A stretch of 64,000 bases of DNA from Candidatus Amarolinea dominans (GTDB lineage: Bacteria; Chloroflexota; Anaerolineae; SSC4; Amarolineaceae): assembly GCA_016719785.1 (NCBI GenBank), contig JADJYJ010000010.1, forward strand, positions 1-64,000. The letters are read 5' to 3'. Within the stretch, counting starts at the first letter, position 1. Each line of letters begins with the position of its first letter. The notes under the pieces are model-generated. The model did not search any database. It was not told the DNA's origin and saw only the letters and a program-made list of their open reading frames with translations. The position numbers were made by a program, and so were the translations under genes. Below are positions 11,836-16,420 of this stretch, piece by piece.

Positions 11836-12150
11836 CTTTCCCAGGGCTTATGCTACACTCACTGCACAATCCGCCGTCGGTAGTTGCCGCGTATTTTGGA
11901 GTTGTTTGACAGAGCGATGAAGAAATCTGACTGCCTCATGGCGGCAGGCGGAAAGGAGCATTCTGTGTGAGAGATAATTTACGGACTTGTATAGCACTAA
12001 TACCGAATTAAGTCAAGTCGGGTTGGAGATGGACAGCAACCCCAAATGTGGGTTTTAGGCAGAATCGGCGCGGTTCGAGTGACTCCCACGATCCGGACCG
12101 GTGCAAGAAGGAGGAAAAGATGAAACACTCGCGCTCGAAGGCGATACACC

Positions 12151-12366
12151 ATGGATAACGAGAGACGAGCGACGATCAGAGAGCGATTAGCCCTGGTCAG
12201 CGACCAGTTGACAACGGGTGACAGCGCGCTGGCTGTCGTCTTGAGCGAGGCGCGCTTGCAGGCGGGGTTGGCGGCCTACGAACGCGCTCGAGCCGATGGC
12301 CTGTGCCATGAAGGCGCCTGGGAATGCGCGCTGGAGGCCATGCAGGCTCCTGCCGCTGAGACCTGA
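12151..12366 (+). CDS. Small hypothetical helical protein, 71 aa or longer; true start possibly the ATG at 12120 after an AGGAGG
   Basis: ORF in the AT-rich leader upstream of the recombinase. A strong RBS, aaggagg, precedes the ATG at 12120 in another frame (MKHSRSKAIHHG*), so a frameshifted 83-aa protein is possible. Confidence 0.3.
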   Translation: MDNERRATIRERLALVSDQLTTGDSALAVVLSEARLQAGLAAYERARADGLCHEGAWECALEAMQAPAAET

Positions 12367-12610
12367 GTATGCGTGCCGCCGTAACTGCTCAGCCAGGCAG
12401 TGAGAATGGTCTCGATAGCGCCCTTCGCGTCCTTGCGACTTGGCGTTATGGTTACAAACGACAAGAAGGTGGTGAAGAGAAGGGACTTGCACTTTGACAA
12501 TCGAATAGAACTTCCTATCTGTTTCGGGCGCAAGCGAGAACGCTGAAGTTACGGTGGCTGAAATGTGCTATCCTGAATAAAGTCATGAGGCGAAATTCAG
12601 GAGGCAGCCA

Positions 12611-12820
12611 ATGAAAGCAAAAACAGAATGGCGAGTACGGATGGAACGCCAAGCCCATCGAGATGCCATGCACAGACTGAAAGCCGCTTATCAGAAATTG
12701 AGTCAAGAAACAGAGCCGAAGGAGGTTCGTAATGAAACAGACAGCTGCGTTGTATGCCCGTGTTTCGACGCAACGCCAGGAAGAGGAGGCCACGATAGCC
12801 AGCCAGGTGGCGGCGATTGA
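12611..12820 (+). CDS. Small basic protein overlapping the recombinase start, possibly a recombinase accessory or regulatory protein
   Basis: AGGAGG lies 7 nt upstream of the ATG at 12611. The ORF reads through the recombinase RBS and start, suggesting translational coupling. Confidence 0.35.
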   Translation: MKAKTEWRVRMERQAHRDAMHRLKAAYQKLSQETEPKEVRNETDSCVVCPCFDATPGRGGHDSQPGGGD

Positions 12821-14307
12821 AGAATGTCCCACCCACGAGGGTACGCCTTGCGAAAGGACTTGTATTTTCTGGACGAGGCGGTGAGCGGGGCGAAATTGGA
12901 TCGTCCGGCGCTGGATCGGTTACGAGACCGAGAAGGTGAAGGCTGTTACCAGGTGGTGATCTGCCTGAGTCCAGATCGGTTGGCAAGGGTGTACATGTTG
13001 CAGGTGCTTCTGCTGGAAGAATTTCGGCAAGCCGGGATACAAATGTTGTTTGTGAACCAGCCTCCGGTGAGCGATAGCCCGCAGAGCCAACTGTTGTTCG
13101 GCATTCAAGGGTTGTTTGCCGAGTATGAACGGGCTGTGATTGCCGAACGGATGCGGCGAGGGCGTCTGCATTGCGCACGTCAGGGAGCAATGGTCAACCC
13201 AAAGACCCCATATGGGTATGATTACGTGCCCAAAACAGGGAGGGAAGGCGGGCGTTGGGAAATCAATGCCGAAGAAGCCAGGGTCGTGCGTCAAATTTAC
13301 GCCTGGTATACCCAATCCGAGCCGATGACTATTCAAGAAATCACAGATCGCTTGAATCGAGACGGCCTCCAACCGCGTCGCGGGAAGTGCTGGCGCAGTA
13401 GCCTGATTGAAACATCCTGCGACAAACCCAATATACCGGATTGGCTTACTACAATCGCACCGAAAAGGTGTATCATGAGGTGGGGCGATTGCGTAAAATT
13501 GGGCATGGCAAGCGTCTTTGCCCGGTGAGTATGCTTCGCCCCACAGAAGAATGGATTGCCATTCCCGTCCCCAGCATTTTGGACAAGGATATCTGGCGCA
13601 TGGCACAAGAACGACTGAAAACGAACCAGCGATTCTCAATGCGCAACAATCGCAACCACCGCTATCTCCTGCGCGGCTTGTTGATTTGCGCCACTTTTAG
13701 CCATACACTCACCGCCCCGCTGGGAATGGCTATTTTTCCTGGCTGTGGCTATGGCGGTGTTCACCGTGCCCCCGATACGCCTGAGCATACCTGCCGCATT
13801 GACGGCAACACCGTTGAAACCCTGGTTTGGAACGCAGTGGTGGAGCTTTTGAAAAATCCCAAACTGATTTCCCAAGCGTGGGGCTGCGATGAAGCTGCCA
13901 ACATCGAGCAAGGTGAGAAAGAGCGGTTGGAAAATCGCTTGCGATCGCTCGACCGTCAGCAAGAACGTCTGCTGGACTTGTACCAAGATGAGCAGATCGA
14001 AAAGCCATCCTACCTGGTGCGCAAACAACGTCTGGATGAGGAGCAAAAAAACATTCAAACGCGCCTTCTGCAAATCGAGCAAGAGGCCAAGTCCGAACAA
14101 ATCAAGCAGGAATTGATCGAAGATTTCCAGCAATATTGCCAGCGTATCCAGGAAAACCTTGCAAATCCCAGCCCGGATTTACAACAGGAAGTGATTCGGT
14201 TGTTAATTGATCACGTTGTTGTCGGAAAAAATGAAATCGTGATCAAGCACATCGTCCCGACCGATGATGATTGTCGTTTGAAACCACAACGTCTTTGCGT
14301 TGAATAA
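12732..14307 (+). pseudogene. Large serine recombinase (resolvase domain + recombinase domain + zinc ribbon/coiled coil), split by two frameshifts
   Basis: GGAGG then ATG at 12732 gives MKQTAALYARVSTQRQ, with the catalytic Ser in the resolvase N-terminus. The frame changes at about 12830, where a GGG homopolymer sits. It continues in ORF 12824-13528 (VFVNQPP..., DRLNRDG) and changes again near 13440 into ORF 13441-14307 (AYYNRTEKV, Cys-containing zinc-ribbon region and a long coiled coil). Confidence 0.8.
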
Positions 14308-14470
14308 CGATTTTTACACAAGGGCGTGGTGCAGGAAAGCGCGCGCTTTCCGAAAAATGAACAAGAAGTGAGCACTGTTCGATCTGTTCACAGAGCATCA
14401 TTCGCGTGTATCCTGGGGTCACTGATGATCGGTACGAGGCCGATGTCAATCACCGGCAGGAGATGCAATC

Positions 14471-15058
14471 ATGACGAACCCAGGCGCCGAGAGACCGCTT
14501 TCCAATTCCAATCCCAACACTCATGCCGCCGTTCTCGACGCCAGCCTGGCCGGTCTGTTGACAGCCCGCGTATACTATTCTTTTACCACCATCTGGCAAC
14601 TCGCCGCACCGGTTGCCCCCATCTGGACGGCGATTACCGAGGTTGAGCGATGGCCGCAGTGGTGGCGGGGGGTCGAGGCGGTCGTCCGCCTGCGCCGCGG
14701 GGACAGCCGCGGGATCGGCGCCGCCCACCACTACACCTGGAAGAGCAAGCTGCCTTATCGTCTCACCTTCGTGATGGAGACAACCTGCATCGAACCGTTC
14801 CGGCGCATCGAGGGCCGCGCCACAGGCGAGTTGGAAGGGACCGGTTACTGGACCTTCAGCGAAGCCAATGGCATCACGACTGCGCGCTACGATTGGAACG
14901 TGACGACCACCAAGCGCTGGATGAATCTCCTGGCGCCGCTCGCGCGACCGTTCTTCGCCTGGAACCACGACATCGTCATGGCGTGGGGCCGCGAAAGGGC
15001 TGTCCGCCTTACTGACTGCGCCCCTGCAAGCCTGGCCTCGACGGCCAGCCAGGCCTGA
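14471..15058 (+). CDS. SRPBCC superfamily protein (polyketide cyclase / dehydrase-like, COQ10-like)
   Basis: [14 protein letters not shown] followed by a beta-grip-like body typical of PF10604/PF03364. Confidence 0.65.
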
Positions 15059-15146
15059 GGTGCGCAGTCAGGGCGGCGCCTCCGCGCAAGACCTGTCGAA
15101 TGGCCGCAAGCGCCATCTTCAATATCCTGGTAACGAGGTATCATCT

Positions 15147-15761
15147 ATGAACGCATCGTCCGCTTTCGACCGCGCCGCCGGCCTGGCGGCCATCGCGGCC
15201 GCGCTGATCGGGCTGCTGTACTCTGTGGCGTTCGTCGTCCTCCAGAACGCGCTGCTCTACTCGCTGTGCCTGCTCATTGGCGGCCTGTTGTCGCTCGTGG
15301 CCCTGGTGGCCTTGTTCGAGCGGCTGGGCGAGGCCGATGCGCAGGTTGCCATGCTCGGCCTGATGCTGGGCGCCATCTCGGCCGTGGGGGCCACCATTCA
15401 CGGCGGCTACGACCTGGCGAATGTCCTCAATCCACCGGGAGAGCTGCCGGCCGCTGTGGCCGCCCTGCCCAGCCAGATTGACCCGCGCGGCCTGCTCACC
15501 TTCGGCGTGGCCGGCCTGGCCGTGCTGATCGCCGGCAGCCTCATGCGCCGTCATCTGAGCTTCTCCCCTGGCTTTGGCGCGTTGACATTCCTGCTCGGCG
15601 CGCTGCTGATCGTGGTCTACCTGGGCCGGTTGATCGTGCTGACGCCCACCAGCCCGCTGGTGCTGCTGCCGGCCGCGCTGACCGGCTTCGTCGTCAACCC
15701 GCTGTGGTACCTGCTCTTGGGCCTGAGCCTACGAGCATCTCGCCTCGAAAAACCAAATTGA
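15147..15761 (+). CDS. Polytopic membrane protein of unknown function
   Basis: 4-5 hydrophobic helices. Start taken at MNASSAFDR. Confidence 0.55.
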
Positions 15762-15776
15762 TAGGAGCAAGAAACC

Positions 15777-16057
15777 ATGTACGGCACGATTGCACGGATC
15801 AAAATTGACCCGACCAGGATCGAGGAATTGAAGGCGTTGGGTGACAGCATGGGCGTGGCGCCCGGTCAGGTCACGCTTGCGTTTACCAGATGGACGCCGA
15901 CCCCGGCGAGCTGTTCCTGGTGGCTGTGTTCGAGAGCAAGGAGGCCTACTGGGCCAACGCCCAAAGCCCGGAGCAGAGCGAGCGCTTCATGCAGTTGCGC
16001 GCCTTGCTGCTGGCTGACCCCGAATGGCACGACGGCGCGATCGTCAGCGTGGCTTGA
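15777..16057 (+). pseudogene. ABM (antibiotic-biosynthesis-monooxygenase/Dabb-like) small protein, frameshifted at about 15890
   Basis: [23 protein letters not shown]... continues in another frame as YQMDADPGELFLVAVFESKEAYWANAQSPEQSERFMQLRALLLADPEWHDGAIVSVA*. Confidence 0.5.
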
Positions 16058-16078
16058 CGAATTGATTGGGGGCGGGGC

Positions 16079-16264
16079 ATGGCCCATCAGACGATAGAAA
16101 CCGTTATCGTGGGCGGTGGACAGGCCGGGCTGGCAACCAGCTACTGGCTCTGCTGTTGGGTGTCGGGGACGATGCGGCGTTCATCGCCGAACACATCGCC
16201 GCGCGCTGGGACTGACAGAACGCACCTGCTCAGCCGGCGGCGGCCGCAGGCGAGCGCACGATGA
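16079..16264 (+). pseudogene. N-terminal remnant of an FAD-dependent oxidoreductase (flavin monooxygenase-like)
   Basis: MAHQTIETVIVGGGQAGLATSYWL is a GxGxxG FAD-binding start. The remainder is out of frame or absent. A palindromic repeat follows. Confidence 0.4.
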
Positions 16265-16298
16265 GCATCAGCCATTGATTGACCGAAAGAGTGCTGAA

Positions 16299-16385
16299 CT
16301 ATGCTGCAAGCGGGCACGAATTGCGCCTGTTTCCGCCGGCAGAAGAGTGAAGTCTATTCCCACTTGCAGTATACCTCGCCTGTCC
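16299..16385. repeat. Palindromic MITE/REP-like element copy A (about 85 bp, ends TGCAAGCGGG...CC(G/A)CTTGCA)
   Basis: ctatgctgcaagcgggcacgaattgcgcc...gaagtctattcccacttgcagtatacc. A second copy lies at 58341-58417. Confidence 0.7.
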
Positions 16386-16420
16386 GCGCACAGCGCTAAC
16401 CCTGCGCTGGCCGAAGCGCC

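Follow-up and report, generated by a model that had tools for sequence, protein, structure and literature searches.

Genes and features of the locus

We analysed a stretch of 64,000 nucleotides from Candidatus Amarolinea dominans (contig JADJYJ010000010.1, positions 1 to 64,000 of the forward strand), hereafter called the window, and in it a large serine recombinase (LSR) gene with its surroundings. A first-pass annotation of the same DNA had described a 4.3-kb islet from 12100 to 16400. What we find instead is a mobile element of 1.85 kb, whose true ends are inverted arms at 12442-12464 and 14271-14293. The features of the element are as follows (ORF, open reading frame; RBS, ribosome-binding site; att, attachment site, with attL and attR at the left and right element ends and attP on the excised circle):

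12442..14295 (+): whole mobile element, 1,854 bp with one copy of the TT core, delimited by the homology limits of the close copies L049-L052
12417..12464 (+): attL, with the host-side arm at about 12417-12439, TT at 12440-12441 and the P' arm at 12442-12464 (GGCGTTATGGTTACAAACGACAA)
12442..12546 (+): startless left-end open frame (GVMVTNDKKVVKRRDLHFDNRIELPICFGRKRER, then a stop), the putative last ~35 recombinase codons, which would be joined to the gene only in the circle
12487..12516 (+): nucleotide-conserved block (TTGCACTTTGACAATCGAATAGAACTTCCT) inside the left-end frame
12599..12820 (+): AGGAGG RBS (12599-12604) and small ORF (69 amino acids, 12611-12820), overlapping the start of the LSR gene by 89 nt
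12732..14307 (+): disrupted LSR gene, with a 99.06% nucleotide match to contig L001 and Pfam support
14271..14318 (+): attR, with the P arm at 14271-14293 (TTGTCGTTTGAAACCACAACGTC), TT at 14294-14295 and the host-side arm from 14296
predicted attP junction of the excised circle: GAAACCACAACGTCTTGGCGTTATGGTTACAAACGACAA

An LSR had already been annotated at 12732-14307. A homologue does lie there according to Pfam, but it is not a single ORF. In the ORF map it is split over three frames (12732-12884 in frame 0, 12824-13528 in frame 2 and 13441-14307 in frame 1), and its reading path follows frame 0 from 12732 to about 12838, frame 2 to about 13408 and frame 1 to the stop at 14305-14307, the final four codons and the stop being flanking DNA. 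The Pfam domains Resolvase (E=9.4e-23) and Recombinase were found on the fragments, and the window copy carries the motif YARVSTQRQ near its start. The repaired translation retrieved thousands of homologues, the best of which was P0001 (544 amino acids, 97% identity), an intact protein encoded on L001, which matches window 12720-14304 with 99.06% nucleotide identity. P0001 scored with Resolvase (E=4.5e-31), Recombinase (8.7e-16) and Zn_ribbon_recom (8.3e-7), and a Pfam scan at E<=0.01 returned only these three domains and no DUF4368. Intact relatives thus have the three-domain layout of LSRs, P0001 aligning to the SPbeta integrase over residues 49-500. The best PDB match was the catalytic domain of the TP901-1 integrase, which together with the SPbeta integrase stands closest among solved structures. 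The NCBIfam scores were under the respective cut-offs for XisF (87.6 vs 375), CcrB (95.5 vs 900), CcrC (81.6 vs 900) and CcrA (61.1 vs 700), and transpos_IS607 reached 35.7 bits vs a cut-off of 110, with the catalytic domain only.

Compared with intact close copies, the window gene has lost 1 nt at ~12838/9, ~13408/9 and ~13717/8 and 2 nt at 13740/1, the deletions at ~13717/8 and 13740/1 offsetting each other in frame. A base-by-base comparison with the intact copies found eight substitutions that occur in the window only, two of them synonymous and six at conserved residues; among the changes are Y32C, A33P, C323F and G324S in the zinc ribbon, a neighbouring Ser-to-Gly and a Cys-to-Arg. The zinc ribbon is damaged by C323F and by the 1-nt and 2-nt deletions, and Zn_ribbon_recom, which scores in P0001, does not score in the window copy. 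With three frames, four indels and the loss of conserved residues, the window gene is therefore inactivated as it stands.

Ends of the element and attachment sites

A repeat search revealed an inverted repeat, 12444-12464 / 14271-14291, with 2 mismatches in 21 nt. The arm sequence has only two matches in the window, where none is expected by chance, and the P arm encodes the LSR codons DCRLKPQR. From left to right the element consists of the P' arm, a leader, the small ORF, the LSR gene and the P arm. Its G+C content (GC) is 0.52 as against 0.623 for the window, and that of the leader, rightly described before as AT-rich, is 0.476. Attachment repeats had been expected around 11.9-12.7 kb and 16.1-16.4 kb; the arms found are inverted, and the right one lies at 14271-14293, not at 16.1-16.4 kb.

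The 290-nt leader recurs in the four close copies L049-L052 (92-93% protein identity), whose similarity to the window ends just outside the arms and whose flanks differ. Close copies of the element were found in at least four distinct flanking contexts. Under a geometry of 23+2+23 nt the same dinucleotide, TT, stands at both window junctions, and the reconstructed attP is a near-palindrome of 48 bp, in keeping with the att sites of LSRs, which measure some 40-50 bp and have imperfect inverted half-sites around a 2-bp crossover common to attL and attR. The C-terminal tails of the homologues split right after ..DDDCRLKPQR(L), those of P0001, P0002, P0003 and the window all being different; they diverge at once because the recombinase stop lies outside the element.

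An element start 12 nt before the ATG, derived from the comparison with L001, was discarded. On L001 an IS110-family transposase gene and its end (250-1878) abut the recombinase RBS, and, since L049-L052 carry the leader too, the leader is assigned to the element. An insertion of the IS110-family element into the leader of the L001 copy has apparently separated its LSR gene from the small ORF and the left arm. Nothing credible was found with Rfam at a relaxed threshold over 11500-17000, and scans for sigma-70 promoters and terminators remained at background level.

A family of elements, mostly in Chloroflexota

Scans of genome and metagenome collections gave 47 and 80 family loci. When genome contigs were scanned with P0001 alone no relative was obtained, while the alignment-based scan retrieved relatives. 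Most of the loci come from metagenome-assembled genomes (MAGs) of Chloroflexota (Anaerolineae), and many of the contigs are about 2 kb long. Intact copies are present in the samples ERZ27258521, SRR26992859, SRR32910821, DRR784958 and SRR15603314. Members with 40-78% recombinase identity share a layout in which the left arm precedes the ATG by about 300 nt and the final codons of the gene make up the right arm. Throughout the family the arms are conserved and vary together, as for example GGTAATAAACGACAA with TTGTCGTTTATTACC. With one fixed 23+2+23 geometry, the two junctions carry an identical dinucleotide in 23 of 25 elements (GA in 12, TT in 6, AA and TA in 2 each, AT in 1). For the GA subfamily, a TA-centred perfect palindrome was rejected as attP because it disrupts the reading frame and the periodicity of the flanking repeats, with both of which a 48-nt site centred on GA agrees.

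In five of 20 contigs the sequence breaks off no more than 7 nt from the putative crossover, and L012 consists of exactly the element with the dinucleotide at each end. Such breaks are the usual effect of a repeat with several contexts on an assembly graph. Three copies from different samples (L050, L051 and L052) have a common right flank, and the left flanks of L050 and L051 differ, which suggests recombination between copies or nested insertions.

The small ORF upstream of the recombinase

Two small ORFs had been annotated in the leader. The one at 12611-12820 is real and is preceded by AGGAGG, but that at 12151-12366 is a host gene, also present in a relative that lacks the recombinase (see below). 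As had been noticed before, the former reads through the recombinase start. Counterparts lie upstream of the LSR gene in at least 29 related elements and share the N-terminal motif VRxERxPHRxAxxRLRxAY. Their codon-position entropies of 0.80/0.44/1.57 are a coding signature and indicate purifying selection on the protein. Across the family the small ORF ends at the recombinase ATG or 60-90 nt inside the gene, and this position suggests translational coupling. A single-sequence AlphaFold2 model of the protein has one helix (residues 2-33), the rest being disordered, and no family was matched in Pfam (also at E<=10) or NCBIfam. Judged by its sequence, the small ORF is a real gene and a conserved partner of the recombinase. 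The suggestion, made earlier for the overlapping ORF, that its product is a directionality factor or a regulator is plausible.

The open frame at the left end

From the inside of the left arm, a frame stays open for 30-40 codons with neither a conserved start nor an RBS. In 31 of 35 elements it follows the pattern ..VxNDK.., 4-8 residues, LHFENRIxLPE, a basic tail (often RGRP) and a stop. The spacing from NDK to LHF is 4, 5, 6 or 8 codons and the frame is never shifted, the GRP codons vary at the third position only, giving synonymous spellings, and the two alternative frames contain stops. Length variation by whole codons, synonymous variation and stops in the other frames favour a coding function. 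Moreover, when the ends are joined at the shared dinucleotide, the left-end frame continues the recombinase frame (..DDDCRLKPQR) in all subfamilies. No Pfam support for the extension peptide was obtained at E<=10.

Inside this frame, the 30-nt family block TTGCACTTTGAAAACCGAATAGAACTTCCT is nearly invariant across LSRs that are 40-78% identical, with codon-position entropies of 0.56/0.43/0.41. Since all codon positions are conserved, a DNA- or RNA-level signal must overlap the frame. In the window, the block (12487-12516) gave no Rfam match and no sigma-70-like promoter match.

Comparison with a recombinase-free relative

An SRPBCC protein of 93% identity (P0121) led to two contigs of a close relative of the host, L053 and L054, both without the recombinase. 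In BLAST, L053 1-2219 corresponds to window 10150-12368 at 97.3% and L053 2327-8611 to window 14321-20613 at 94.8%. The features concerned are:

12369..14320 (+): segment differing from the recombinase-free relative, 1,952 bp in the window vs 107 bp in L053/L054
12151-12366: small host ORF (71 amino acids), present in the recombinase-free relative
14471-15058: SRPBCC gene, Pfam Polyketide_cyc at E=5e-8
15147-15761: hydrophobic ORF of 204 amino acids (membrane protein)
16300-16314 / 16359-16373: arms of a palindromic element, 15 nt, 87% complementary

A presence/absence polymorphism linked to the recombinase is thus seen between L053/L054 and the window, as the first-pass annotation had envisaged, and it supports the view expressed there that the recombinase is part of a mobile element. 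The gene order on L053 is that of the window: giant protein, 71-amino-acid ORF, SRPBCC, 204-amino-acid membrane protein, 93-amino-acid ABM-like protein, ion channel, 218-amino-acid gene and Band_7. Since the downstream genes are present in the relative without a recombinase, they are host genes and not cargo, as which the SRPBCC, membrane protein and ABM genes had been annotated; their GC of 0.63-0.68 is host-like. The identities given to the first two agree with the features listed above. The third, an ABM monooxygenase-like protein, is frameshifted, but after repair it matched Pfam ABM at E=2.8e-4, below the gathering score. Other supposed edges fell away in the same comparison. The giant secreted protein, taken as a sign of an element edge, is present in the relative too, and the FAD-like gene stub and the palindrome, taken as the end of the segment, both lie in a spacer of 364 bp, for which L053 shows about 99% identity.

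The site of the element is the spacer between the host 71-amino-acid ORF and the host SRPBCC gene, and no gene is interrupted. In the junction alignment, the sequence next to the element (about 70 bp on its left, about 25 bp on its right) shows no clear homology to the 107-bp spacer of the relative, so that this spacer was either replaced or has quickly diverged. Taken jointly, the identity of the recombinase, the boundaries of the element and the exclusion of the neighbours as cargo are conclusions in which we have high confidence.

Frameshifts in neighbouring genes

Some of the neighbours also differ from their counterparts on L053. Measured against the intact gene for 93 amino acids, the ABM-like gene (15777-16057) is shifted by -1 at ~15877, and a PspA-like gene (17016-17519) has a +2 insertion at 17045, giving 167 instead of 218 amino acids. 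The SRPBCC gene shows a compensated +1/-1 at 14994 and 15021. The giant right-handed beta-helix protein at 4231-11835 (-), with NosD/Beta_helix, CarboxypepD_reg and CAP domains, is broken into at least five overlapping ORFs in different frames, which points to several frameshifts or else to misassembly of a repetitive gene. Elsewhere in the window, ORFs of 4.1, 2.9, 2.4 and 2.1 kb are intact.

Target sites and tandem repeats

Several members of the family are flanked by short tandem arrays whose unit is like the element end, and the repeat register is regained once the flanks are joined. In L063, (TGTGTACC)n stands to the left and to the right of the element (1-113 and 1987-2040), 7-mers are seen in L081, L083 and L084, and the flanks of the GA subfamily contain 10-mers ending in ..ACRCRGA. 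Perfect or near-perfect flanking arrays occur in L063, L081, L083, L084 and L065, and further units are GTGATTC and nnnCACG. A flanking tandem repeat was considered as a universal feature and dismissed, since strong arrays, with periods of 7, 8 or 10, are found in a minority only. The arrays may be either targets or products of the element. To the left of the window element there are CTTCGCGT / CTTGCGA / CTTGGCGT-like units.

Intergenic arrays with periods of 7, 8, 10 and 11 also occur elsewhere in the window (24245-24481, 27336-27387, 30801-30889, 43777-43890, 59466-59490 and 60376-60431). Examples are TTCAGCA x15, GAGAGATT x6.5 and CCGATGGAAAT x8, and they resemble the STRR repeats of cyanobacteria. 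At 43777-43801, ACACAAAG x3 is of the type complementary to the CTTnGYGY units beside the element.

A proposed split-gene life cycle and its alternatives

We consider it likely that window 12442-14295 is a damaged, cargo-less LSR element of about 1.85 kb with a split-gene life cycle. In such a cycle, deduced from the layout of about 30 related elements, the LSR would recombine attL with attR at a 2-bp crossover (TT in the window subfamily, GA in most others) and release a circle of 1.85 kb bearing the 48-bp near-palindromic attP. The circle would re-insert where the inner arm of a site resembles the element's own end, often in short tandem repeats. With attP located within the recombinase gene, integration would transfer the last ~35 codons to the other element end. 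An integrated copy would then make a recombinase ending in a few residues encoded by the flank, and the circle alone would encode the full-length protein, the C-terminus lost on integration being ..NDK..LHFENRIELPE and a basic, often RGRP, tail. The two isoforms, possibly together with the small helical protein, could bias the reaction toward excision or integration. From the sequence comparisons we infer excision as a circle, translation of the left-end frame, the difference between the isoforms and the role of the small protein, and the full-length, junction-spanning recombinase is a predicted form. Indirect evidence of excision and integration comes from the presence/absence difference with L053/L054, from the several flanking contexts and from the contig breaks at the element ends. 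For the mechanism itself, in which integration would split the recombinase gene and excision rejoin it, we lean slightly toward acceptance. The wider proposal of a widespread family of autonomous LSR-only elements, mainly in Chloroflexota, with a topology-dependent isoform switch that could set the direction, an AT-hook-like tail, a helical partner and a preference for tandem repeats, is a tentative one, slightly less likely than not.

Several observations weigh against this interpretation. The 107-bp spacer of the relative is not a clean empty site, and the target sites resemble direct repeats and not inverted half-sites, an uncommon arrangement for an LSR. At the left end, the best-conserved stretch of the open frame is kept at the nucleotide level, third positions included, and part of this frame could be due to a DNA or RNA signal. 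Neither a circle junction nor a junction-spanning ORF was seen in the tails of 65 homologues, and no junction-spanning recombinase was found by a word-index search or among 1.84 billion representatives, both searches being of limited reach. Finally, the ABM and PspA-like genes are also frameshifted with respect to L053 and several lesions are clustered, so that an assembly error in the window copy has some probability.

The conservation of TTGCACTTTGAAAACCGAATAGAACTTCCT at all three codon positions and the failure of the searches to find a junction-spanning protein would both be expected if the element were as described, the left-end frame being an untranslated DNA or RNA signal (an accessory site, a promoter or an untranslated region) and the recombinase ending in the flank without effect. 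Yet no stop interrupts the frame over 30-40 codons in 31 of 35 diverged elements, the NDK-LHF spacing varies by 4, 5, 6 or 8 codons with no shift of frame, the tail is always basic, with RGRP written in differing synonymous codons, and the frame agrees with that of the LSR across the junction in every subfamily. We regard an untranslated signal as possible but rather doubtful. The damage to the window copy raises another question, namely whether the recombinase of this same small element is intact in the real genome, the indels and clustered substitutions being assembly or consensus errors. Two of the 1-nt deletions lie in short G runs, substitutions are paired 2 nt apart, and the ABM gene, the PspA-like gene and the giant protein are frameshifted relative to L053 or internally. 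However, the long intact ORFs speak against a uniformly high indel rate, six of the eight window-only substitutions fall at conserved residues and the 2-nt deletion is outside any homopolymer. Errors of this kind are an unlikely explanation, and it is reasonably probable that the window copy is truly inactivated and not mis-assembled.

Two further explanations concern the nature of the element as a whole. A domesticated host recombinase, either an invertase or an excisase of programmed rearrangement such as XisF or SpoIVCA, would agree with the membership in the LSR family, with the weak similarity to NCBIfam XisF (87.6 bits) and with the existence of recombinase-only interruption elements in cyanobacteria (PMC4874684). 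It is made very improbable by the absence of the recombinase from close relatives, the intergenic position with no gene interrupted, the disruption of the window copy, the occurrence of the same element in several unrelated contexts and at contig breaks, and an XisF score far under the 375-bit cut-off. The 4.3-kb islet of the first-pass annotation, moved by the recombinase with the SRPBCC, membrane protein and ABM genes as cargo and with the stub and palindrome as its right edge, had in its favour that the genes are adjacent on one strand and that GC is lowered across 12-15 kb. But L053/L054 keep ORF71, SRPBCC, membrane protein, ABM, stub, palindrome and ion channel in order without a recombinase, the low GC is limited to 12442-14295 and short spacers, with the supposed cargo at 0.63-0.68, independent element copies share nothing past 14295, and the palindrome has another copy at 58342-58415. 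Such an islet is hardly credible.

Relation to known systems

Attachment sites within the integrase's own gene are found with the archaeal tyrosine integrases of the SSV1 type and with intP/intX of the myxophage Mx8. As we propose for the present family, integration there splits or re-tails the integrase gene, and the free and integrated forms encode different proteins, but these are tyrosine recombinases of viruses or plasmids with many genes. The phiRv1 element of Mycobacterium tuberculosis, a prophage-like element of about 10 kb with many genes, uses an LSR to enter REP13E12 repeats and has a small recombination directionality factor. It resembles the present elements in the repeated chromosomal target, in the extended common core of attP and attB and in the small direction-controlling protein; it differs in that the integrase gene is complete when integrated. 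The transposons Tn4451 and Tn5397, moved by TnpX and TndX with GA as the central dinucleotide, and the elements of the multi-targeting LSR clade are alike in that an LSR serves as transposase, a circle is formed, several sites are used, the dinucleotide is fixed and the targets resemble the ends. In the multi-targeting LSR clade, for which a TT dinucleotide is one example, DUF4368, absent in P0001, is found in 63% and is rare elsewhere (PMC10083194, Durrant et al. 2022). In contrast to our family, these elements carry cargo and have a recombinase gene that is not split by the att site.

The IS607 family is described (PMC6188088) as insertion sequences (IS) of about 2 kb moved by a serine recombinase without target-site duplication. 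It differs in having a small TnpA with an N-terminal DNA-binding domain and no terminal inverted repeats, whereas the window family has a three-domain LSR and 23-nt inverted arms. The heterocyst interruption elements of cyanobacteria go down to about 1 kb in size and may hold no gene but that of the excision recombinase, 48 of them having serine recombinases (PMC4874684, Hilton et al. 2016). They are similar in that the recombinase gene sits at one element end in a fixed orientation (PMC4874684), but they interrupt functional genes and are excised in development, while the window element is intergenic. The present family also departs from the XisF-type elements in its occurrence, mainly in MAGs of Chloroflexota, in the conserved small gene upstream of the recombinase and in the position of attP within the 3' end of the recombinase gene.

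Recombinase-only elements with serine recombinases, LSR transposons and multi-targeting LSRs are thus already known. In the literature searched, which was limited, we found no serine-recombinase case of attP inside its own gene. Within that scope, three features appear to be new, namely an att site in the gene that leaves the C-terminus at the opposite end, a dedicated small partner protein and a preference for tandem repeats.

For the window, the map is corrected in that the neighbouring metabolic genes belong to the host and the recombinase copy is probably dead. Serine integrases are important tools of genome engineering, and the control of their direction is an active question. If the architecture of the family holds, it would be a minimal natural system of one recombinase, one small partner and a 48-bp site, and, if the proposed mechanism is true, the topology of the element itself would change the C-terminus of the enzyme and could set the direction of recombination. 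Such an IS-like class is easily missed. Its members disrupt the assembly of Chloroflexota MAGs from short reads and reside in short tandem repeats.

Other features of the window

An ORF at 2509-4143 (-), with 544 amino acids equal in length to P0001, was examined as a recombinase and is not one; it sits in a patch of low GC (0.57).

At 16079 the first-pass annotation had placed the truncated start of an FAD-oxidoreductase gene. The sole basis for this name is a GxGxxG-like motif, and no hidden Markov model supported it, with Pfam even at E<=10. The stub (16079-16150) has a Rossmann-like motif, GGGQAGLATSYWL, at the ORF start, followed by unrelated sequence, and is kept in L053. It may be a remnant of an FAD/NAD(P)-binding oxidoreductase gene that was lost before the two strains split. 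An SRPBCC homologue with 72% identity (P0123) lies in a non-syntenic context, which was of no help in dating the stub.

The palindromic element annotated nearby was found again as an inverted repeat. Its 74-nt unit (16300-16373, with 15-nt arms and a 44-nt loop) has a second copy at 58342-58415 (-), 88% identical, and is therefore a dispersed genomic repeat. The unit looks like a repetitive extragenic palindrome (REP) or a miniature inverted-repeat transposable element (MITE), occupies the same place in L053 and has no relation to the recombinase.

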